A stretch of DNA of 62,836 nucleotides, filler included, from Dimargaris cristalligena (Eukaryota), in assembly GCA_003614675.1 (NCBI GenBank). It is 2 parts of 2 records of this genome, joined end to end, with 100 filler letters (N's around TTAATTAATTAA, not from the genome) between each part and the next. Parts side by side here need not be neighbours in the genome. Positions count along the whole stretch, not along the records: positions 31,476 to 62,836 come from ML002443.1; 1 more part is not named here. One strand, written 5' to 3'. This document shows positions 26,993 to 52,178 of the stretch, piece after piece. The first letter of the stretch is position 1; each line of letters opens with the position of its first letter. The notes beneath the pieces are model-generated. The model worked only from the letters and a program-made list of their open reading frames with translations, searched no databases and was not told where the DNA came from. The position numbers were made by a program, and so were the translations under genes.

Positions 26993-28260
26993 CGATGGCG
27001 CCATTTTATCGCTGGGACTGATACTGTGGTGGAAATGGCTGAGCCAAGCCAATCCTCGAGTGGATGGGGTCAACTATGCTTACCAAGGGTATTGTTACTC
27101 AGCGAATGATGGATTGCCGATGGTCAAACCACTACCCGATTAGCCATGGTCGGGGCTTTAAAACCAGCGGGCCTGTCGTCTAGCCCTATATTTATTTATT
27201 TATTTTGGCGGGAGAAGGAATTGTCGAGGTTCGAATCCGGAAGCTGGTTAATTATAAACCGCTGGGTTTCACCCGACTAAGCGTAACCCCCCATAGGGAG
27301 GGTCGGAGATTTGGTGTACTACCATCAGTTGTGTGAGTCTGTCTTATCGATGAACTAGGTGGAGGAGTGTTTCGGATACAACCCGATAACCTGTCGCTTT
27401 AATTATTATTTTTTGCAGCAAAATAGAGAGATGACCAGCGGAGATTGGGGGTGGGCGAATCTACCAGGAGCCAAAGGGAGGGTATTATATGCAATGGGGC
27501 TGATGGAGGCGTTGAACGTGTACGACATAGTTCCTTTTTATATTTTTATAAAAGTCAAAGTGTTTTTGGAAGCCCCCGTTCCCCTCCCCCAAACCATGAG
27601 CGGAATTATAAGGGGTCTCTTTCCCACAGTTGGGTAGCCTATGGCTAAGCTGGCGTCTTCCGGCTGCATAGCGGCCGAGAGATCATGTAATTAGAATAGG
27701 TCGCTGGTTACCCCAAACCGGTGAGCCGTGTTACTAACGAGAGCCTTATCCCTGAAACGAGCCAGGCGGGGGCTCTAAAGAGATATCATATGTGAGCCTA
27801 TATAGTTACCACCAATATTAATGGGAAAAAAGCTAAAATAGACCCTTAATCGTTCCTTTTCATTTAATACGAGGCTTAGGTCTAGCACTTCCACGTTACT
27901 ATATTTGGAAATACGATGCCAATTGCACAGGTTAATAGGTACTTGATATCGCTCCAGTAGGTAGTTTTGGTATGGTCAAAGGATTGGGGAGATTATATAT
28001 ATATATCCCCTTTTACCTGTTGGCGCGATTTTATATTGACTGTATATCTAGATATTCCCCCCTTACTATTAACCCCCGAGGTGATAAGTACCTCACCATT
28101 ATCCTCCTAACATAGCCACGCCTCCAATCCCTTTATATTTCTTTTTGAGGGTCATTTTTTACATAAGTGACTGAATAGCTCGCTCATATGATACTGCGTT
28201 GCTCAAATCCAACTACTTATACTATACCGTTCATATCCATTTACATCATTATTTAGAACT

Positions 28261-29364
28261 ATGAAACCACACCAGGTGAGTAAATTATATTTTATATGGT
28301 TAGTATTTAGCCTACTAATTCCCAGTACCCTTTCTTCCGAAACAAACGAGGGTGGCCAACTAGCTTTCGACGCCGAGTCGTTTCAAGCGCTTTACAACTG
28401 GTCGCTCCAGTACTTAGCTGCGAACCCTGCCGAACCTGACTCCCCTTCAGTTGGGAGTTCGAGCGACTACGGCGGTTCCCACGTGGCCCTAGGCCCTTCA
28501 ATCGACGACTCTTTTAACCCGGACCGTTCGGCTTGGGACTATACATCAACTTCTGGCGACGCCCGCCGAGTCGCCCCGGCCCCTCTGGATGCGCAAGCCG
28601 ATGATCTCATATTTCCCGAATGGTGGTTTGATTTTGACAGCCCGGCCGCCGATGTCGATGCCACAGTCGAAGGCCCCCATATCCCTAATAGAGACTCGGC
28701 CCAGTCCAGTCCAAGTCAACTATACGATACTATCGACTCTATTAACGCTATTGATGTCATGGACGCTACTGACGTCTCCGACGCTGCTACCGCCTATACC
28801 CCCCCATCCACGCCTGCAGTAGAAGGAAACGAGGCTATCCCCCCTTCCTATCCCCCCACCGGATTCACGGGCTTGCCCCCAAACCGGTATACCAGAGGTA
28901 CAATTGCCCTGTCCTTCCTCAAGGATCCGGCCGAGTTGGAGGGAGAGCACCTGAAACCCGACTTGCCGGCCCCGGGTCCCCCCCATAAGCCCACGCCATC
29001 AATTCGACGCCGTAAGCGACCCAGATTACATCACGGTTGCCCCCACTGTCCGCGACGGTTCGCGTATAATCGGGCCCTTGCTATGCACATGGCCGCCCGG
29101 GTCTGTTTAAAGGAGCGCAAATGCCAGGATTGCCACCATGTCTTTAAAGATAATCCCCAGTATCATAAGCATCGGGGGACCCGTCAAGGCGAATGTGCCA
29201 ACTACCCCTATTCCTGTGCTCATTGTGGGGAGAAATTTAAAATACTTAGCAAGCTGGCTACTCACCAATTTTCTAAAACTATTACGCCGCCGTACACATG
29301 CCAGAAATGTGACCAGGACTTCCCCGCCAAATGTTTGCGTGCCATTCATGAGCGAGCTTGTTAG
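28261..29364 (+). CDS. C2H2/C2HC multi-zinc-finger protein with hydrophobic N-terminus
   Basis: 367-aa ORF. Four fingers (CPHCPRRF..HMAARVC, CQDCHHVF..H, CAHCGEKF..H, CQKCDQDF..HERAC), a basic cluster RRRKRPR, and an acidic, Pro/Ser-rich middle. Confidence 0.82.
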   Translation: MKPHQVSKLYFIWLVFSLLIPSTLSSETNEGGQLAFDAESFQALYNWSLQYLAANPAEPDSPSVGSSSDYGGSHVALGPSIDDSFNPDRSAWDYTSTSGDARRVAPAPLDAQADDLIFPEWWFDFDSPAADVDATVEGPHIPNRDSAQSSPSQLYDTIDSINAIDVMDATDVSDAATAYTPPSTPAVEGNEAIPPSYPPTGFTGLPPNRYTRGTIALSFLKDPAELEGEHLKPDLPAPGPPHKPTPSIRRRKRPRLHHGCPHCPRRFAYNRALAMHMAARVCLKERKCQDCHHVFKDNPQYHKHRGTRQGECANYPYSCAHCGEKFKILSKLATHQFSKTITPPYTCQKCDQDFPAKCLRAIHERAC

Positions 29365-41249: not shown

Positions 41250-42170
41250 CTAATCGTCTGAATCATCGTCGCGGGGTGGTTGGAGGGATTGCACATAGTT
41301 ATACACCTCAGGATACCGGCAGGCGACAGTGGACTTGAGCTCTCTGGGTAATCATCACGACAACAGTACGGTTCGGTATAAAGTGCAATTGTGATATAAT
41401 CTAATGAGTAGAGGTCTTCGCTGAAAAAAGGACGAGTAAAATATAGTATAGCAGGTAAAGGGACTGGTGGGCAATACACCATAATCTAACATTACCTGAT
41501 CCTCCGATATATGGAGTCGATATCGGTCTTTAGTTCACGAATAGTGTTGGTGTGGTGCTTGAGTTTACCGCTCATTTCGTAGTAAGAGCTCCGACTCAGG
41601 GCGTTGAACTCCATCAGCTCTTCTCGTGCAATACGCAGGGCTTCTTTACTGTTCAGGGTTGGTGGTACAATTGGTCATTGCAGAATCGCCATATAAGCAC
41701 ATAGTACAGGTATGTTGGTTTTAATAGCTCCACCGGGGCAAGGCAGTTCGTCGCAGGCCACCAATATTGGCGTATTAAAGACGAATGCCTCTTTCACAGA
41801 CTATTCCTTTGCTGTAAAGCCACGGTAGGTGGGGGGGAGAGGGTTTGCTTAGGGATAAAGCCCAGAGTTGCTAAGTAGTAATAGGCCTCACTTACGCTTT
41901 AAGCTGCTCCCCGGCAATAGCATCCACCTGTTCATTACTTAAACTGTCAATGAGGGGCGCAAACACCGGTTCCGTTAATGCATCCTCGGACGACAGGTCA
42001 TTGATTGATAGGGTCTGGGCTGGCATGAGGGGGCCGGTCGGTGGGTCTGAGGATGGTGGTAAGTCAAAGTCAAAAAGACCGAGGCTGTTCTGACGCTGTA
42101 CGGGCAAAGCGGTATGCACCGGGAAGGCCGGCGAAACAGGAGGCGGGGATTCGTGTCGGGAAAGACTCAT
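41250..42170 (-). CDS. KXD1: KxDL-motif protein (BLOC-1/BORC subunit Kxd1), 3 exons
   Basis: Exons approx. 42170-41896, 41648-41496, 41343-41250. They translate to ..ELMEFNALSRSSYYEMSGKLKHHTNTIRELKTDIDSIYRRIRELKSTVACRYPEVY..*, matching the KXD1 core. Confidence 0.82.
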
Positions 42171-43069
42171 AATCTGCGGGGTATTTTTACAGTAACGGGG
42201 AGGGGCAAGTCTGAGAAGGGTGAATGTAAAAGCCGAAAGAAACATGTATATAGATGGGTACAAAATTGAACGAGAATGAGAGAGCCAAATGTAGGACAAG
42301 AAACCTCCCATTGAACTTATCCCACACATGGGCTATGGGGACTATCGATAATAAATGCTGTCAGCGTGCTGTTATCTATTCGCGTTACTTATATCTCTCA
42401 ATGGGCAAATCCACAAGACTACAATAACCGAACAATCGCCGTACACATGTGCGGGGATAGCATCAGGCAATAACCTCAATCAGTAAAACTAAAGGAAATT
42501 AAATAGGATCGGCTGGTAGGAATGAATACGAGGAGGAGAAAGGTAGGAAACATAATTCAGTGCTAATACCTCTCCCGTCTACTTCGAAAAAAGTAATCCT
42601 TTTAAGGAAGATTCTGGATTTCCCTTTATTAACATAATGGGGCTGCCAAACAAATTGTCCGTTAGAACGAAACATAATACATGACCAATAAAAATGGAGT
42701 CGGATTATATTTATAAAATGTAATACAAATAATGTCGTGAGGTCGAATCAATATTAGCTTCGCGCTCAAAAAATCAGGACTACTCTCGATTTCTCCAACC
42801 CGGACCACTTCTCTGAAAATGGGAAACATCAAGTCCTTTAAAAATAGAATCGAAAATGGGGGTTTTATTTAAAATATTCCAAAGAATACTCAGGAGCCAT
42901 CATACTAACCGCTTATAATAAAAATGATGTTTTATGTTCAAGGTCGGGCTTCAGCTCGTACTCTGCCACTCGATTGCGTCCGTGCTTTCGTTCCCTATTC
43001 ACGATCGAAGCCTGCAGGATTAATTAAATCTGTCAAACTGCTATCTAGAACCGGTTGGTTTAGGAAGGG

Positions 43070-45340
43070 TCAATGTGGGCATTTGCTAGAGATCCTTCGT
43101 CATCGACGGCCATTGCTATCGAGCAGGATCTCGTTTTGGTGATTTGCTTTCCACTCCACGCTCTCGGTGGCGACTAAAAATTACTTCATTGGGACTGGTG
43201 ACAAGATCTGTTTGAGAGAAATTAGGTAAATTTCGGAAGTGATGGTCGAAGGTGACACGGATAACTATTCTAACCCTAACCCTCCGCCCATTCTGCACTA
43301 AGCAGAAATACTAAAGATATAGCATGTAGAAGAGAGTAGCGCATCATTGGGTAAATGGTTTAGAGATCTTTTCCCACAGCGATTGTTTCGGTTCAAACTT
43401 AGCCAATGTTTCAATGGGATAATGATTAGCGGGGTTTGATTTCATAAACGCCTCCTTGGCAAGATTGGGCGCAAATCTCGGCACATTAAGTACGACGCCT
43501 AGTTCACCACGGGATGATAGGCGAAACCAGTATGATCCCATCTGAAAACGGTGACATGTCACATCGTCCGATTTCAACCAGACATTTTTATCGTTGACCA
43601 GATTGACCAAGTACTTCTTCTGTTTGCTGAGCTCTGAATTCGCCAAGAATTTCCTGTAGCAGCCGAAACTTAGGTTTATCAGAGAGCCCCGTAGTGCCTG
43701 GACAAGTCCAAGCACCTGCTCGCCGTTTTCATCGAGAATGGCGAGAGTAAGGAAGAAGTAAGTGGATTGTAGTCGGTGATATCGAAGATCGCTATCACTA
43801 TTCATCCAAGACAACCGCGGAGTGGCGATATCCGTAAGCTGCAGGTATTGGCTGATTGCAGAGTATTGCTGAGTCTGATAGAGATGGACGATGGCCAAGT
43901 GAATCGACAAGCCCGCAATCACAGAGACGGCCAATTGGGGGTCGTAGTAGAATGCTTTCATGGGCGCCATGCTGAGACCCGATTCAGCCCCTACTTGATC
44001 CAGCCAGTCCTCGAAAAGGGAAGGCTTGCCCCGGTAATTTGTAGCTCGAATGTAGATAGTACTCAGCAACTGCAATGTTTTGGCATTGGCGAACTGGACC
44101 ACGACTGAACTGAGGGCCGGTGAGATACTGTGTAGGGGACTGGCTGGATTTCCCTGGCCGTTTGTAGGTTAGCCGTCCTTCCCTTGGTTTAAAATGATGT
44201 ATTTCCAGTTGGCGCTGGACAAGAGCAAATGGCCCTGGTTGGCAGCCATGAATGGATTAACACAATCATCTAGGTTGGGCTCTGCTGTCCAATAAGCACC
44301 ATCGTCCACTCCTTGCTTGGTATGGCTTTCATAATTGATGGTCCTCATAATCACCTCGACTGCCGTCGTCGATTCCAACGGTGCTACATTGGACCATACT
44401 CTAGCCCATCCTCGGACGGCCTCAGGGTCAAGAGTGGATCCAGCTAATAGCTTGCCAGTTTCATCTAAGAAACCGTTTAACTAGAGTGCATCAAAAAATA
44501 ATAGGTATTTAGTTTAGGATATGAAAACGGCGACATCCACTACTAGCCAGCATAGCCGAACTTGGCCTTTGGAGAAGTGCAGATTGAGTGCTCAACTCTG
44601 ATTGATAATAACGGGAACTTCAGGGTAGTCAGGCCAGCGTAATGGTTGGGAATAGAGGATTTAAGAAAGTACGCACTTTCGTGGTAACCAGCTCCTTAGG
44701 TTTGTTCTTGACACTTCCGTGGATTGACAGCATCGCCATAAGCCAGTCACCGGGTCCCAAAAAGTCGCCTACTTTAGAAATAATCTCATTGGGGATTTCT
44801 TGAGTTCGCTTACCAAGCGTTTGGCGTTGCAAAGTATCAGTGGCAACTAAGCAGTTGGTAAACAACACCAGAATTGCAGCGACTGAGACAATAGCTTTCA
44901 TTATTTTATTTACTGGATAACGAAGAACATCCGAGATTGGTGGGCAGGGGTATATAAAGAGCAAGGTTTAGTAGCCGGGGTATAGGGTGTGGGAATAGTG
45001 TGCCGTAGCTAGGAAATAGGCAAATACAGGAAAGTATTTAGGATGTAAACATGAGTGAATAATATAGCGAGACTTACCAAGAGCAGTGGTTGGGTAGAGG
45101 GGGTAATGGTAATAGGGTGAATAGAAGGGTGGGCGAGTAGTTTACCAAAAATGGGGGGGGGCTGTCTGTATTTATAGGTAATTTTATAGGTAATGATCCT
45201 AAACCCGTGAAAGACACTAACCACGCATATTATAGTATTTGGGTGGGATTATTACAATTGTATAGGGGTTTGAGTGAACTATAAAGGGTGAGATAGGCGG
45301 GAAAATTAATTTGAAGCCAAGAAGAGTTGCCTTGTCAAAC
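43070..45340. repeat. Direct segmental duplication unit A (homologous to ~48400-50660)
   Basis: 3' flank, coding exons, intron, 5'-UTR intron, promoter and MITE all align with the second copy, e.g. aactggaccacgactgaactgagggccggtgagatactgt is identical in both. Confidence 0.88.
43344..44901 (-). pseudogene. Paralog A of the secreted F-box-like protein, disrupted by in-frame nonsense codons
   Basis: Exon 1 44901-44677 and exon 2 from 44480 are colinear with paralog B. An in-frame TAA at 44171-44169 stands where B has CAA, and a TGA at 43346-43344 stands where B has AGA. Confidence 0.78.
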
Positions 45341-45412
45341 ATACGGGTGAAATTTGACCCAACTGTATAGGGTTTTGAATGATATGTGTATGTGATAATA
45401 TATATCAGAGAT
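45237..45412 (-). mobile_element. Two partial, reverse-oriented copies of the 144-bp MITE-like family (45237-~45340 and 45341-45412)
   Basis: 45237-45340 aligns with 50553-50658. 45341 ATACGGGTGAAATTTGACCCAACTGTATAGGGTTTTG matches the reverse complement of the right end of 51084-51227. Confidence 0.6.
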
Positions 45413-48150
45413 CTGCTTCCGCTGGCGGACAAACAAAAGTGAAGTTGATGATAGCAGGCCTCTTGAGGCCGCGATAGACTTCATTTCGTCAGATTTGATG
45501 TATGATGTAAATGGTTTTTTGTAAAAGACGAATCCCTGCTTTAGCAGGTTATATATACTGCTGCTCTAGTCCGGGGCATGCCCTCCCTTATTCTTCCTCA
45601 GACCTTTTGTGAGTCATGAGTACGAATTTTGCTAATGCCTAAATTTGTGATTGGATTGAATAAGCAATTAACTAAATCAACCATCCCGTGCTTATTGAAG
45701 TGGATTGATGCTAAATACTAATGTTTCCAGGTGGGCTTACAAATGATATTGGGTGGGATGCTATCATCAACTTCACTTCTACTGGTCTGCCAGCAGAAGC
45801 AGTTGTCCAAGGGGGAATAACATTCCCATGAAGGACCACTTATACTGGGCTTTCCCAACAGAAGTTTATTGATGAAATTATTTATTGGATAGTACTGAAG
45901 GGACATATTCCAGGGATAGTTGTGGCTGGTAATAATATTATTGGAAGGTAGTTACTGAGGACCAATTGGCACATTGTAGGATATCCTCATCCTTGATTCC
46001 ACAGAGCTTTGCCATTATTGATGACACTACTTAAAATGAGTGGGCTGTGAATTGGGATGTATCAATCCCTGCCTCTTGTAATAATGATTTAAGCCACCAG
46101 GCTAAAGTATCCCCTGAGGCATTGTGGTGACTGTTAAATACTACAAATAGTTTTTGTTAGTCCTGTAGAAGGTGTCTTAAAGGCAGTGACTAGTCTAGGT
46201 ATTTGGCTAGATAATGAACTGGGCAGATGGTAGGATTTTCTTGTAGAGCCCAGAGATTTAATTTTTTATAGTCTCCTTCCTTAACTTGAATGGTCACTAA
46301 ATTCACCAGGATTGGTATAGTAAACTTACTACATTTTTTACTTTCTTTTATTTTTTATCTATTTTTCACATTTATTAGAAGTACACCCCTAATAAGTAAA
46401 TAAGCCCCTGGCCCACTGTGCCCCTATTCACAGTGCAGTTAAAAAAAGTTTTCTCCCTTTCCCTTTTTCCTTCTATTTTTTCACATTAAATTTATTAGTT
46501 ATCCAAGTATTACCTATCCTTTGTGATAACTAGTATAATTATCTGGGAGCTCCCTTTACTTTTCCTTTGCTTAGTTATGCAATCTTCTGGGGCCTTCTCT
46601 CCCTTTCTCTATTATTCATCTATCTTTTTATTTAGGCTTCCCCTTTAGAGTATAAATATTCCCCCTTACTACTGCCTCTTAGAATAGTAAGTCTATTATT
46701 AACTTTCCTATTCTATCATCTATCTTTTAAATAAAGTTCAGTTTTCAAGGATTTAATTTCAGTTCTTTACACTAATAACATTTAGGGCTAACAGATACTG
46801 TTGGAATTATTATTTATTTACTTATTCTAACTGTTCTTCAATGGATGTACCATAGAGGAAGTCCTGGTGTTTATTTATAATGATAGGGACCTGCTGTTAG
46901 AGTTTGCCAGGGAGTTTAATGGCCTTGGCAGTCTGAGAGCAGCATTTAGTTATATACTCTGCAAAGAAGTGGAGCTGGAGGTCAAACAAGCAGGCTAAAT
47001 AATTACAGATGGATGTAGGGTCTTCCCTTTCATCAATTAATTATACTAAGTCACCAATGGATTGGATATTGTGTCCAAAATATTGTTAGTATTTTGACAG
47101 GGTTTTATCAGTAGCTATGTTAATTTGTGCCATTTTAATGGCTGCTAAAAGGTTAAGGTATGGTGGTTTAGTAATCAGTATTGGGTACTGTGGTCCTTGT
47201 TGAATGGACTAATTAGCCCAGTTACTGTTAGCTAAGGGGAGGAAGTTGTGTTCTTCAATATATTGTGTAAGGTACTCTGGGATTTACAACTCCTTTGTGG
47301 TATAGGTAAGGATATGGGGGGCCACATTGCCAAATTCTATATTAACAGGATTACTAATTTGAATATAAGAATCTTCCATATATAAATAAATAGATATGCT
47401 GGCCCTTCTAATCTAACCTAATATGGCTGGATGATTACCCACTATATCAGGCCTTATAGCACCATATTAAACTCCCCATAGTTACCCCTGGTACTATGGG
47501 GTTATTACCTATTACTTATAAACCCCCCAGTTGGGCTCCCCGGTGTTCACACTAATCACTCCACAATCAATCTGTGGAGTCTTCCAGTCCCCATAAAAGT
47601 CTTCCTAATACAAGGACCAGCTGACTGGCTTACTTATCCATAGTTTAGTTATATAGTTCTTCCCTTGGGGCCTCCCTCTAGAGCAGTCCTCTGCATATAT
47701 AAAACTGGGCCCCATTGGGACCAGTTGGGATCCCTAGCTTATTCTTACCCTTAGTTTACCCCCAATAAATAACTATAGACACTTACCCCCTTGTACTGAC
47801 CATAAGTATGCATTGTTACACATCCCTTACCTAGTTGTCCATATTTACTTTATTTAGTTAGTACTATGCCCCTCCCTAATGCTAGTAGCCTGCTTAGCCA
47901 AGTTTAAAGCCCCACCTACTGTTAGAAGTCTATCCCTGGGACTCTTGATGGATTAAGAGTGGATAACCTGGGTAATATAAATAGGGGACATTTTAAATGG
48001 CAATAATGAGAGGGTAAAAAATACCTAAATAACCTAATATAATGGGTTAGAAATAGGGCAGAATAAAAGGCCCATTTGGATATATATATATTTCATTATT
48101 GCCTGCATGACAATTTATTAGACTAATTTTGATACATAATATGGGGGGAC
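45413..48150 (-). mobile_element. Degenerate DIRS1-like (tyrosine recombinase) retroelement relic, probably internally deleted; boundary near 48150 approximate
   Basis: Minus frame ~46290-45878 reads ICPVHYLAKYLD*..LAWWLKSLLQEAGIDTSQFTAHSF*..ILQCANWSSVTTFQ*YY (YR C-terminus). A stop-riddled ORF1-like frame starts at ATG 47991. A ~44-nt inverted repeat links 45413-45456 to 45759-45802. CpG is almost absent. Confidence 0.8.
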
Positions 48151-48399
48151 CATTAAACTGGTCGCAGAGATATAGTTAAAAGAGAAACTAATTTAAAGAG
48201 AAAAAAGAGAAAAGAGAACCTGCGTGCAGCAAAGGGGGAGCACAGGCATGGGGTGATAGGTGAGGTTGGGAGAGACCCAGTGCAAAAAGAGAAAAGATAA
48301 GGAGAAAAGGGTGGTTTGTAAGACCGACTATCCTTATATTGTACTATTGCCATTGGTCAATAAAGGTGGGGTCTCCTCTAAAAAAAGGGGAACACCATC

Positions 48400-50660
48400 T
48401 CAATATGTGGACACTTGCGAGAGGCTATCTATCATTGATGGCCACTGTTACTGAGCAGGACCTCGTCCCGGTGACGTAATTGCCACTCCACGATCTCGGC
48501 GGCAATAACATATTTATTTATTGGGTCCGGTGGCAACACCTGTTTTAGAACAATTGTGCGAATTTCGAAAGTAATTGTCGAAGATAAAAATGATATTCTT
48601 CCAGCCCCCTCCCCTTATTCTGCACAATACAGCAATACAAAAGCAATGGCATTTAGAAGAGAGCGGCGTGTCTTTGGGTAAAAAAATTACCGATCTCTTT
48701 CAATAGCGATTGTTTCGGCTCAAACTTAGCCAACGTTTTAATGGGATAATGGTTAGCGGGTTTAGATTTCATAAACGCTTCCTCGGCGAGTTCAGGCGCA
48801 ACCGTTGACAAATTAATTCCGACGCCTAGTTCACCATGGGATGATAGGCGAAACCAGTACAATCCCTTAGAAATAATTTGGCAAATCCTCCCTTTTGACT
48901 TCAACCAGACATTTTTATCTTTGACCAGATTTTCCAAATACTTTGTCTGTTTTCTGAGACCCAAACCCACCAAGTGCATCTTATAACACCAGAGATTTTT
49001 CCTGTTAGGACTTTTCTGTAATGCCTGGACAAGTTCAAGCACTTGCGCATCGTTTTCATCAAGTGTAACGAGCGTAAGGAAGAAGTAAGTAGCATCTAGT
49101 CGGTAATTTTGAAGCTGAGCGGCATTTCCAGTCTCCATCGCCAATTCTGGAGAGTTAATATTCGGAAGCTGCAGGTATTTTTTGATCTCAGAGTATTGTT
49201 GGGTCTGGTAGAGATGGACGATGGCCAAGTGGATCGACAAGTCTAGCATCACGGTGAAGGCCATTCTGCGGTCTTGATAGCATTTTTGCATATGCGCCAT
49301 CTTGAGACCCACTTCATCCCCTATTTGAGATAGCCAGGCCTCCGCAAGGGAGTTTCCGCCTTGGTAACTGCTAGCTTGAATGTTGATAATACTCAGCAAC
49401 TGCAATGTTTCGGAATTGGCCAACTGGACCACGACTGAACTGAGGGCCGGTGAGATACTGTCTGCGGATCCGCCGGGCCTTCCCATATCATCTTTAGGTT
49501 GCCCGTTATTCGCTTGGTTTAAACGGATGTATTTCCAGTTGGCACTGGTCAAGAGCGGATGGCCCCGGCTGGCGTTAAAGAATGGATTAATACATTTATC
49601 TGGGTCGGATTTTGATCGCGCAAACAACCCTTGATTGGCATACATTTGATGAAAGATGGTATGCTGAACCATGGCGATTAAGGCCGCTGTCGTTTCCACC
49701 GGTGCTAATCTGTACCACACTTTAGCCAGATTTTTGATGGCCTCTAGATCTTGGGTGGGTTCAGAAAACAGCTTACTAGTTTTATCTAAGAAGCTGTTTA
49801 ACTGGAGTGCATCAAAGATAATAGGTACTTAGTTTAGGGGTGGAAACGATGCATCTTCATGTGGTCCACAAAGCCAAATACTGCCTTGGGAAAAGTGCAG
49901 GTTGAGTATACAGCCCTGATTAATGATAACGGGAATTTCGGTGTAGCCGTGTCAGGGGAATAGATGTTGAATATATGACTGATGATGATACTCACTTTAG
50001 GGATAACCTGCGCCTTAGGTATCTTCGCGAGACCTCCGTGGATTACTGATTCCATCATAAGCCAGTCATTGAACTCCAAGTCAGCGCTTATGTTAGCTAG
50101 AATCTCATTGGGGAGTTTTAGAGTTCGTTTCCCAGGCGTCTGGCGTTGCGGGACATCAGTAGCAGCCAAGGAGTCGGTAAACAGCGCCACCATTATATGG
50201 ATTACGGCAATGACTTTCATTTTGGGGTTTACTGGATCAAGAAGTACGCGTGGAGTTGGTGAGGAGGGGTATATAAGGGGCAAGGTTTAGCAGTCGGGAT
50301 ATAGGATGTGGGAATGATGTGCCGTAACTAGGAAATAGGCAGATGTAGGAAATTATTTAGAGTATAGATATGAGTAAATAATATAGCGAGACTTACCAAG
50401 AGCAGTGGTTGGGTAGAAGGGGGAGGGGGTAATGGTAATAGGGTGAATAGAAGGGTTGGCTAGTAGTTTACCAAGAATGAGGGGGCAAGCTGTCCGTATA
50501 TATATAAAATTACCATAAACTCGTGAAGGGTGCTAACCGTGTATATTATAGTATTTGGGTGAAATTAGTGCGACTATATGGGAGTGTGAGTGAAAACTAA
50601 AGGGTGAGATAGGCGGAAAATTCGATTTTAAGCCAATAATAGCTGCCCTGTCCAACATAT
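48400..50660. repeat. Direct segmental duplication unit B (homologous to ~43070-45340)
   Basis: Colinear similarity with unit A across flanks, exons and introns. Confidence 0.88.
48653..50220 (-). CDS. Putative secreted protein with N-terminal F-box-like motif (paralog B, intact, 457 aa, 2 coding exons)
   Basis: Exon 1 50220-49996 (MKVIAVIHIMVALFTDSLAA..GKR TLKLPNEILANISADLEFNDWL) splices in frame (AAA|GTGAGT..CTCCAG|TTA) to exon 2 49801-48653, which is open to its stop. Confidence 0.8.
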
Positions 50661-50696
50661 TTTTCGTTCAAAGGTCTCGGTGAACCTCTCCCATAT
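50553..50696 (-). mobile_element. 144-bp MITE-like element, diverged reverse-oriented copy in the promoter region of paralog B
   Basis: Starts ATTTGGGTGAAATT and ends GGTGAACCTCTCCCATAT. Same length as the other full copies, with internal TTTTTCGTT (reverse complement of AACGAAAAA). Confidence 0.65.
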
Positions 50697-51083
50697 TGAG
50701 TCCACAGTGGCATTGGGGTGATGGAAAAATAGATGTTCGTTTTCAATGAATTGAAGGTGAGCCGCAACAGGTAATACATACGGACTACCCTTGTCCACCC
50801 CTCCCTTTAGGCGACTGGTCAAACCTTTGAATAAAAGAATTCTTAGTTGCCTATTATTGGACTAACTTGATCTCCTCGGATGCTAAGTATTCAATGAAGG
50901 GAGGACGGGAAAGCTCCCGTTGTGCCTAATAAGCCTGATGCGGCGTTTAAATGGATATCGCCAAAGCACCGGAGGTTGAACAGATATCAGGCTAGGAAGG
51001 GATTATACTGCGACCTCCGATTTAAAGTACTTTTGACTCCATCCGTGGTGCCCCGTTCCTGGTAACATAGGCTCATTTCCTTT

Positions 51084-51227
51084 ATATGGGAGAAGTTCAT
51101 CCAAGCTGTATAACGAAAAATTCATTTGATAAGGCCAATATTACTAGTTAAAAATAAATTTCCCATATATTCTCCCATACACATATAATGCAAACCCTTA
51201 TATAGCTGGGCTGAATTTCACCCATAT
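51084..51227 (+). mobile_element. 144-bp MITE-like element, copy 2
   Basis: ATATGGGAGAAGTTCATCCAAGCTGTATAA ... TTATATAGCTGGGCTGAATTTCACCCATAT; colinear with 31775-31918. Confidence 0.72.
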
Positions 51228-52178
51228 CCTTCAATGGCCCACTTACCCAATCACGGTGCCAGTGTAACAACCAGCTGGATGGGAAGGTTTACCTCTGTCG
51301 GTTGTTATCGAAAGAAAGTGCTCCCGCCCCCCCTAGGTCTGGGAGGCTACCTTCTATAGTATTTCCTATACAATAGACCTTTTATATACTTACCCCTTGT
51401 GGCCCTCTATTGACACGTAATAATACTAACATTGGCGGTTGAATTTTCACCCAACGTAACGGACCCTACTATATCCTGCAATAAGGCTTTAGGGGCATCT
51501 GCAGTAGTCGTGGAGTGATGTAGCAGGTGGTTTGAGCTGGACTAGGCTTATTAGTTAGAAAGTAGGCCTGCTGCGGAACCAGCAGTGCTAATTGACTGGA
51601 AACCCCTTTTTTCCCTCTCAAATAATACAGTGGCCGCAGAAGGCGTTCTTCAATTAAAGAAAAGGGGTTCGAAGTATACTAATTGCACTAGTGGGCTAGT
51701 AAGAGGATGATGAGGTAGGTCCATCTGAGTCATAGAGCAAAAATAAATACCGGCTGTCAAACCAAACTATGTCAGCTGAACAGACGACTTAATCGATATT
51801 GCTGTTCAATACAACCTAATGAATTTACAGCCAAGTGGGCCTTAGCTTAAATTCAATAAATCTGGGATGAGGTCTATACTCAAGCAATTCACCTAAAACC
51901 ATGTCACTAAGGATATGTCGGCCCTTAGATATTATACAGCGGATCCTCAATGGACAATTCACATTTAATACCATTAAATGATAACCAAGGGCGAAATGCA
52001 GCCTAACTGTATAAAATTTTTAACAGTATAGTAGGTACAGGAAAAACAGCGGGGTTAATAATGTAACCGGCAATATCAGTCGCAGCAAACACTCATTTCG
52101 CTAGAGGGCATAACTGAACCCCACCCATATTGTTTAGGGTTATTTTCATTTTAGATATATATAAATAAGCCGTATGAA

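Follow-up and report, generated by a model that had tools for sequence, protein, structure and literature searches.

Dimargaris cristalligena forms haustoria in other fungi, and almost nothing is known about host manipulation by haustorial mycoparasites among the early-diverging fungi. The 62,836 nt stretch of D. cristalligena DNA analysed here (the window) carries two paralogous genes on the minus strand, and the question is whether they encode secreted, Kex2-matured F-box proteins that act within a host cell, as an earlier note had proposed. The Dimargaritales are described as mycoparasites (PMC9866270). We see about an even chance that the genes encode a lineage-specific protein that evolves fast, is secreted and processed by Kex2, and is a candidate effector of mycoparasitism.

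The two genes, A and B, lie 5.3 kb apart and their products are identical at 239 of 449 aligned residues. The homologous two-exon pair described previously is confirmed on the minus strand at the coordinates that follow. Gene A consists of exon 1 (49996..50220, 75 codons), intron 1 (49802..49995, GTGAGT...CAG, 194 nt, phase 0) and exon 2 (48653..49801, 382 codons and a TAA stop at 48653-48655), giving a product of 457 aa. Gene B consists of exon 1 (44677..44901, 75 codons), intron 1 (44481..44676, GTGCGT...TAG, 196 nt, phase 0) and exon 2 (43344..44480, 378 codons including an in-frame TAA, with the terminal stop at 43344-43346). The public gene models P0005 (gene A) and P0006 (gene B) agree with ours in the start codon and the junctions of the first intron, and exon 2 of gene A is 100% identical to D. 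cristalligena P0004 and P0005 across the shared parts. There is an in-frame stop upstream of the ATG in both genes and therefore no N-terminal extension is possible inside exon 1.

The in-frame TAA of gene B, which the earlier note overlooked, occupies codon 179 (44171-44169); the equivalent codon in gene A is CAA. It is absent from P0006 because that model excises 44399-44154 (246 nt, in frame, GT..AG), a segment that spans the stop. The TAA is recent, so gene B has either become a pseudogene not long ago or is expressed from transcripts that lack the TAA segment through splicing. As read, gene B is truncated or broken and gene A is intact; the public models of both genes are imperfect.

The duplicated unit is about 2.06 kb long (43280-45343 and 48607-50659) and takes in about 440 nt upstream of each ATG, an extent that had also been overlooked. 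The upstream region of gene A (50221..50659, minus strand) has its counterpart at 44902..45343 (minus strand) in front of gene B. Between 50321 and 50500 the two are 89-91% identical, which is above the exon identity, and the gene A region contains a 34-nt stretch identical to its counterpart, an intron-like segment (GTAAGT...TAG) and, some 45 nt ahead of the ATG, a TATATA. The spacer between the copies (45344..48606, 3.3 kb) is unrelated DNA outside the duplication. Its GC content is 0.37 at 46-48 kb, its ORFs are only short and broken, and a decayed recombinase-like frame is located at 45920-46354 on the minus strand. The GC content of the region is 0.37-0.45, in comparison with about 0.5 in the flanks. 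The gene pair has a GC3 of 0.49-0.55, whereas six genes nearby have 0.63-0.71 and one more has 0.52.

Exon 1 of gene A can be divided into a leader (codons 1-20, 50220-50161), a conserved pro-block (codons 21-33, 50160-50122, with KR at 50130-50125) and an F-box-like motif stretch (codons 34-64, 50121-50029), all on the minus strand. The corresponding parts of gene B, on the same strand, are at 44901-44842, 44841-44803 (KR at 44811-44806) and 44802-44710. The leaders, the QRQT.GKRT block and the LPNEIL and IPNEII motifs read exactly as they had been quoted. By inspection, the layout is that of a signal peptide: M-K (K2), then a 12-residue core, then small residues (S-L-A|A in gene A; T-N-C|L or L-V-A|T in gene B). 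The best 12-residue hydrophobic windows are residues 3-14, with Kyte-Doolittle means (2.92 in A and 3.05 in B) that are the highest in each protein. In gene A the 12- and 19-residue windows of greatest hydrophobicity begin at residues 1-4, as do those of gene B bar one 12-residue window from residue 9; the next-best 19-residue window of gene A scores 1.58, and the Kyte-Doolittle windows reveal no second transmembrane-like stretch in either protein. The KR at residues 31-32 is the only one in each protein and sits inside the best-conserved block of exon 1, the pro-block (10/13 residues identical between the paralogs, as against 8/20 in the leader and 16/42 in the motif stretch). Within it there are three synonymous codon differences, at Q27, G30 and K31.

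The putative signal peptide and Kex2 site fit those of a classical secretory pro-protein. The leader would direct the protein into the ER and be cleaved near residue 19/20, and a kexin-type protease would then remove the conserved 12-13-residue pro-segment after K31-R32. The mature product would be soluble, mostly alpha-helical and about 425 aa long, and would contain few cysteines (4 in gene A). We infer secretion and Kex2 processing from these sequence features, and any role in parasitism is likewise inferred.

The family is an orphan, known from one species only within the databases searched. A search of 5.77 billion clusters (3767 candidates) gave four matches at E≤0.001, each either a D. 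cristalligena protein or encoded by the window itself, all three matches of an exhaustive phmmer scan of 1.84 billion representatives are the same D. cristalligena proteins, and a profile search finds the same four proteins again. These four represent three loci, all in D. cristalligena, and no homologue was found outside this species in the databases searched. That other Dimargaritales gave no relatives may be due in part to the choice of proteomes in these databases.

Such a distribution would also fit if the genes were young duplicates with little or no function, members of a recently arisen or decaying ORF family that is drifting to loss and in which the N-terminal features have no role. 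Consistent with this, dN/dS is 0.84 overall, 1.05 in exon 1 and at least 1 across the first 250 codons, and nucleotide identity in the exons (69-74%) is not above that in the intron (72%) or the flanks (69-77%). The low GC3 and the premature stop in gene B point the same way. However, the frames have stayed open through a nucleotide divergence of 27.4% between A and B, and each of the four gap runs consists of whole codons. One stop or fewer has P=0.005 in 5000 simulations, assuming that half of the differences accrued neutrally on one copy, and P drops below 0.005 where more change was neutral. Furthermore, dN/dS is 0.43-0.69 in the last 200 codons and 0.43 in the C-terminal 57, the pro-block has synonymous changes yet a conserved protein sequence, and long invariant blocks are common to the third paralog (44-46% identity; 72 invariant columns in the three-way alignment). 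The family thus evolves fast with its frames kept open, and an absence of function is unlikely. We note that dN/dS near 1 and low GC3, which would also suit a young or decaying gene under weak constraint, count against an effector, as does the stop in gene B. The size of the proteins and their paucity in cysteine, unlike the classic small cysteine-rich effectors, are a further observation of this kind.

Lineage restriction, tandem duplication, fast change with open frames, an atypical codon composition and a low-GC setting that also holds a decayed mobile-element-like ORF suggest that a role at the parasite-host interface is the most likely one for this family, either as a candidate effector or as another secreted interaction factor. 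Being restricted to one lineage, duplicated, fast-evolving and set in atypical DNA, the family has the sequence-level traits that define a candidate effector in operational terms.

The same N-terminus could instead be an uncleaved membrane anchor in the ER or another organelle, leaving the rest of an endogenous, non-secreted protein in the cytosol of the parasite as a membrane-tethered adaptor, F-box-like or not. The secretion leader is judged by inspection, the flanking charges (K2 against D22, R26, K31 and R32) do not force an orientation, and a cytosolic site would reconcile an F-box-like motif and Skp1 with no need for translocation. However, the uninterrupted core is only 12 residues long (3-14) and is followed in gene A by T15-D16; a membrane span tends to be longer, and a core of this kind is typical of cleavable signal peptides. 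Small residues apt for signal peptidase come after the core, and fungal secretory pro-proteins usually have a conserved KR block right behind their leader. An anchored protein is therefore distinctly unlikely, and we retain the secreted, Kex2-processed protein as the best explanation.

The C-terminal domain of about 380 aa, which the earlier note did not recognise, matches no Pfam family at E≤10. The AlphaFold model of exon 2 has a pLDDT of 46 (helices throughout, with residues 130-305 at 50-79) and a second model has a pLDDT of 35, with 27-43 in its N-terminal part. In a fold search of the exon 2 model (VIA-align) 146 chains have Z≥5 and none has Z≥8; the best match, the RNA14 HAT domain, has a Z of 7.5, which is within the noise stated by the tool for helical models, and the matches are generic helical repeats. 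TPR-type clusters are atlas leads at 0.87-0.89, and no internal sequence repeat was found (score 27; shuffled sequences average 31). The models and the fold search, at these confidence levels, give no functional clue.

We turn finally to the F-box. The consensus LPxE(I/L)(L/I)..I...L...D(L) is the pattern of F-box helices 1-2, and the motif LPxEI(L/I)..(I/V)...L...D is present in both paralogs, starting 3-4 residues past the KR. A regular expression for this motif, written post hoc, was scanned on the six frames of the window and on 200 shuffled windows; its two matches in the window are at these two sites and there are none in the shuffles. Eight residues (P37, N38, E39, I40, L48, D52, W53 and L54) are invariant within a surrounding stretch that diverges. 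In a language-model feature search with residues 33-100, the 30 hits include no named families other than F-box clusters, which stand at rank 2 (0.88) and rank 29 (0.81); both are below the threshold of the tool and are leads only. The neighbour at 0.88 is the one search result in favour of an F-box.

Profile and PDB sequence searches do not bear this out. No Pfam-A family, F-box included, was found by hmmscan at E≤10 with five window fragments (exon 1 of A, exon 1 of B and pieces of exon 2) or with three public models including P0005 and P0006, in which exon 1 is joined to exon 2, a limited negative since the HMMER filters discard most matches above E of about 0.1. The F-box profiles named in the earlier note (PF00646 and PF12937) are among those that gave no match. 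Searches of the PDB at E≤10 gave three matches with P0005 (asparaginases and L12), none with a profile of exon 2 of gene A (A2) and one with a profile of the two exon 1 sequences (SKA1), and no F-box protein was among them. Thus, of the secreted, KR-processed F-box protein proposed earlier, the secreted and KR-processed part fits the sequence by inspection, whereas the F-box part lacks profile support. As a motif the F-box-like sequence is genuine, and its identity as an F-box is putative.

The motif and its surroundings bear directly on the proposal that the mature protein exposes an F-box at its new N-terminus, binds Skp1 in the host fungus and recruits host proteins for ubiquitination through its helical body. 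In its favour, an N-terminal motif, a linker and a helical-repeat-like body recall the layout of F-box adaptors, the parasite forms haustoria in other fungi, and Skp1 is highly conserved. An invariant partner, however, means that an F-box module should be well conserved, and the motif stretch is the opposite: it is the least conserved segment of the protein (16/42, in comparison with 83/139, the helical core, and 73/121 in the body) and has a dN/dS of about 1. The third helix of an F-box carries a conserved (C/S)(K/R)xW; at the expected offset the paralogs have V-I-H-G-G-L-A-K-I-P-K (A) and S-I-H-G-S-V-K-N-K-P-K (B), that is IHGG or IHGS and a proline-containing loop with no tryptophan. Residues 61-72 are coil in the low-confidence AlphaFold model, the N-terminal part of which is without confidence, and an N-x-S sequon within the motif of gene A (N43-I-S) could be glycosylated in the ER. 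Taken together, these data make such an adaptor improbable. Equally doubtful is its full form, a fungus-against-fungus hijacker of SCF in which cleavage would bare a cryptic two-helix F-box (T33-LKLPNEIL...) that passes from the haustorium into a Mucorales host and docks on host Skp1, so that the fast-evolving body marks host proteins for degradation.

At present this is an uncharacterised orphan family and the F-box/SCF claim exceeds the evidence. A species-restricted, duplicated and fast-evolving family with a secretion leader and a conserved kexin site is nevertheless a sensible candidate with which to begin. If the motif binds Skp1, ubiquitin-ligase mimicry would reach from bacteria and insects to the interaction between fungi, and SCF hijacking, if true, would be the first shown for an effector of a mycoparasite and in the Zoopagomycota.

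F-box effectors that are secreted or translocated have been described before, and these precedents lend the SCF proposal some plausibility. SSGP-71 is described as one (PMC4617103). Like effectors of that type, as described, the Dimargaris proteins have a secretion leader, an F-box-type motif near the N-terminus and a repeat-like body, and they form a lineage-specific, duplicated family proposed to act within host cells. They differ in having no F-box profile match, a helical rather than an LRR body and three known loci only; moreover, the host would be a fungus and Skp binding is putative. The statement in the earlier note that no such family was known from an early-diverging fungus was too strong, as a predicted secreted candidate effector of Rhizophagus clarus, NLS_30765, is reported to have a Pfam F-box-like domain (PF12937, 2.8e-07; PMC4746824). 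By description, which is the basis of this comparison, that candidate too is from an early-diverging fungus, is predicted to be secreted and has an F-box-type element but nothing else that is recognisably similar to known proteins; it passes the Pfam F-box-like profile and the Dimargaris proteins do not. Described bacterial examples include Legionella AnkB and LegU1 and Ralstonia RipG (GALA). The concept they have in common with the SCF proposal is a pathogen-made F-box adaptor that plugs into host SCF via Skp1. Agrobacterium VirF is a further translocated F-box effector. As described, the bacterial proteins are unrelated in sequence to the Dimargaris family and have type III/IV secretion and profile-recognisable F-boxes, in contrast with a putative ER signal peptide and Kex2 site. 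Finally, fungal secretory pro-proteins (those of the alpha-factor type and many secreted enzyme precursors) have a short pro-peptide that ends in KR and is cut by Kex2. The mature part of the Dimargaris proteins, unlike theirs, has no known family or enzyme signature and its processing is predicted, but the likeness lies in the N-terminus, where a signal-peptide-like leader is followed by a short conserved segment that ends in the only KR (31-32) of the protein.

Two homologous genes lie on the minus strand where the earlier note had placed a tandem pair; both have two exons, and the strings quoted from them are all found exactly so. Gene A, at 48653-50220, has a 75-codon exon 1 (50220-49996, with its ATG at 50220), a 194 nt first intron (GTGAGT...CAG, 49995-49802) and a 382-codon exon 2 ending at the stop at 48653-48655, giving a protein of 457 aa. 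Gene B, at 43344-44901, has the same layout, with exon 1 at 44901-44677 and exon 2 at 44480-43344 separated by a 196 nt intron (GTGCGT...TAG). The start codons and first introns are the same in the public Dimargaris cristalligena models P0005 (gene A) and P0006 (gene B). There is an in-frame stop 22 codons before the ATG in gene A and 21 codons before it in gene B, which indicates that each frame opens with its methionine. The stops rule out an upstream exon extending the N-terminus, and such an extension is also opposed by the lack of an ATG in the conserved segment from the intron-like GTAAGT to about 280 nt upstream.

The earlier note missed an in-frame TAA in gene B (44171-44169, codon 179), the counterpart of which in gene A is CAA. 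P0006 sidesteps this stop by cutting out 44399-44154, a 246 nt in-frame GT..AG segment whose homologue in gene A is coding. The C-to-T change also makes a CTAAC, 16 nt ahead of the acceptor CAG of P0006. The segment 44399-44154 may be either spliced out or retained. P0005 likewise cuts an in-frame 186 nt GT..AG segment (49011-48826) from exon 2 of gene A. This is probably a mis-prediction, because both gene B and a third paralog conserve the segment at the protein level. The second public model of gene A, P0004, begins at an internal Met, and the full 457 aa reading is absent among the proteins returned by the word-index and profile searches. As read from the sequence, one copy (gene A) is intact and the other (gene B) carries a recent premature stop.

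The two proteins are 53% identical (239/449) and 27.4% of the aligned coding nucleotides differ. The Nei-Gojobori estimate of dN/dS is 0.84 overall, with 1.05 for exon 1; by window it is at least 1 over codons 101-250, falling to 0.43-0.69 across the final 200 codons. A young, weakly constrained family without function is one reading of a ratio close to 1, and we consider it unlikely. All four gap runs in the alignment are whole codons and the TAA in gene B is the sole stop. When half of the differences were simulated as unconstrained on one copy (n=5000), a mean of seven stops arose and one stop or fewer was seen at P=0.005; with all differences unconstrained (n=5000) the figure was P<0.0002. 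The rarity of so few stops, together with the whole-codon gaps, indicates that both copies were coding for most of their history and that the TAA is recent. Genes A and B thus represent a real protein that is evolving fast, rather than simple decay.

The duplication spans about 2.06 kb in each copy (43280-45343 and 48607-50659) and has a period of about 5.32 kb; the blocks found share 74-80% identity. Nucleotide identity between the genes is much the same across compartments (upstream 500 nt, 77%; exon 1, 69%; intron, 72%; exon 2, 74%; and downstream, 69%), save at 101-280 nt upstream of the ATGs. This upstream stretch (50321-50500 and 45002-45172, minus strand) is 89-91% identical, compared with 69-74% in the exons, and includes an identical run of 34 nt seen at these two sites only. 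A conserved promoter or leader might account for it, as might gene conversion. The stretch has no ATG, and within it a segment of about 70 nt, GTAAGT...TTTCCTAG, resembles a 5'-UTR intron. There is a TATATA about 45 nt before the ATG in both genes. Further upstream (50533-50667 and approximately 45217-45350, minus strand), a short frame of about 41 codons with a Met start is kept in both copies (MLDRAAIIGLK... and MFDKATLLGFK...), ending in a stop some 310 nt short of the main ATG; these frames may have been retained by chance in duplicated DNA.

The duplication does not extend into the 3.3 kb between the copies, which is low in GC and has short broken frames only. One of these (45920-46354, minus strand) has four in-frame stops and reads ...FTAHSF(stop)...ANWSS...(stop)YY, a pattern that recalls what we take to be the catalytic end of Crypton-type tyrosine recombinases. 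A recombinase was rejected here: one 54 aa piece gave a weak NDC10_II match (E 0.029), and the read-through, with X at the stops, matched nothing in Pfam or PDB. We also rejected the idea that the 2 kb copies are terminal repeats of a mobile element flanking a recombinase-like remnant, because the copies keep long open frames that are conserved at the protein level. The pair lies in a stretch (42000-51500) with a GC content of 0.37-0.45, and the flanks are at about 0.49-0.57. The flanking housekeeping genes encode AP-2 alpha adaptin, an ABC transporter, a rhodanese, a UBX protein, Tam41 and an RGS protein. GC3 is 0.49-0.55 for the pair compared with 0.63-0.71 in six of seven neighbours; the seventh, unnamed, is at 0.52.

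Fungal secretory pro-proteins usually have a leader followed by a block ending in KR, and by inspection the N-termini of genes A and B appear to have this layout. The most hydrophobic 12-residue window in each protein is at residues 3-14 (Kyte-Doolittle 2.92 in gene A and 3.05 in gene B), with K2 before this core and small residues after it. The sole KR in each protein, a putative Kex2 site, is at residues 31-32. It lies within residues 21-33, the block of exon 1 with the highest conservation (10/13 identical, compared with 8/20 for the leader and 16/42 for residues 34-75). Within the block Q27, G30 and K31 are unchanged in the protein despite synonymous codon changes. The same hydrophobic core would also suit an endogenous protein tethered in a membrane, a reading that we regard as quite improbable next to the conserved KR block. 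There is no further membrane-span-like stretch; the next-best 19-residue window in gene A scores 1.58.

Elsewhere in the window, an ORF at 28192-29364 (plus strand) is a second case in which a secretion-type leader and a nuclear-type domain occur in one protein. Its first Met (reading 28261-29364) opens a signal-peptide-like leader of MKPHQVSK, a 12-residue hydrophobic core and then PSTLSS, followed by an acidic low-complexity region, RRRKRPR and C2H2 zinc fingers (Pfam zf-C2H2, 2.4e-08).

The earlier note proposed that Kex2 cleavage exposes an N-terminal F-box. There is a motif in exon 1 of both paralogs, just after the KR (LPNEIL in gene A and IPNEII in gene B), and a regular expression written after the motif had been seen matches these two sites only in six frames and none of 200 shuffles. 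In a language-model feature search with residues 33-100, the only named families among 30 matches were F-box clusters (0.88 for rank 2 and 0.81 for rank 29), both sub-threshold with few features in common. The profile check did not bear the proposal out: in hmmscan at E<=10, none of five window fragments, P0005 and P0006 matched a Pfam family. The matches in three PDB searches (E<=10) were to asparaginase, ribosomal L12 and SKA1, none of them an F-box protein. The defining property of an F-box is Skp1 binding. No part of the protein is less conserved than the motif stretch, where dN/dS is about 1, and this counts against an F-box because the module must fit an invariant Skp1. In what we take to be the F-box consensus, the third helix with its tryptophan falls where genes A and B read IHGG and IHGS, and a proline-containing loop follows. 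In the AlphaFold model of P0005, which takes in exon 1, pLDDT is 27-43 across this part, too low to weigh for or against. That these proteins redirect a host SCF ligase as F-box proteins is, on this evidence, very doubtful. A Crinkler N-terminus, which came to mind from a presumed resemblance (a conserved D-W-L, plus G-L-A-K in gene A), was also rejected: there is no Pfam match and the LAK of gene A is not kept in gene B.

For the body of the protein, AlphaFold gave pLDDT of 46.1 for exon 2 (4-row alignment) and 34.9 for P0005 (3-row alignment), the latter of insufficient quality for fold comparison. The exon 2 model is mainly helical, with moderate confidence at residues 130-305 only. A VIA-align wide search with it found no chain at Z>=8 and 146 at Z>=5, led by the RNA14 HAT domain (Z 7.5 over 109 aligned residues, rmsd 3.9). 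Next come numerous unrelated proteins with helical repeats; judged from this model, the matches appear generic, within the range of a common helical arrangement. The Atlas model of this protein has pLDDT 0.33, and the Atlas feature matches, of TPR/IFT/clathrin type, are sub-threshold (0.87-0.89). Searches of the body found no Pfam repeat family, internal sequence repeat or PDB relative.

Of 3767 candidates in a word-index search of 5.77 bn clusters, four proteins reached E<=0.001, and each belongs to D. cristalligena or the window itself: P0004, P0005, P0006 and P0007, a partial third paralog (46% identity) on a 2.6 kb contig. Identity of 100% to named proteins marks the organism as D. cristalligena. 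An exhaustive phmmer scan of 1.84 bn representatives found the same three representatives and no others, and a profile of three members recovered the same four proteins. A word-index search with P0005 residues 1-80 gave a self-match only among 15 candidates and missed gene B, so it is insensitive. The family is an orphan as far as the searched libraries reach, in which other Dimargaritales proteomes are possibly under-represented. In the library searched, no paper names BJ085DRAFT_30029, H4R33_001991 or H4R33_007081 and none links Dimargaris to F-box proteins. Dimargaritales are mycoparasites (PMC9866270). The most likely reading, at about even odds, is that the pair belongs to a fast-evolving, lineage-specific family of mycoparasite proteins that are secreted and processed by kexin, which would make these proteins candidates for an effector or interface role.

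For early-diverging fungi, the concept of a candidate effector that is secreted and of F-box type has already been published, in Rhizophagus clarus (PMC4746824). The closest worked example is the SSGP-71 family of the Hessian fly (PMC4617103).
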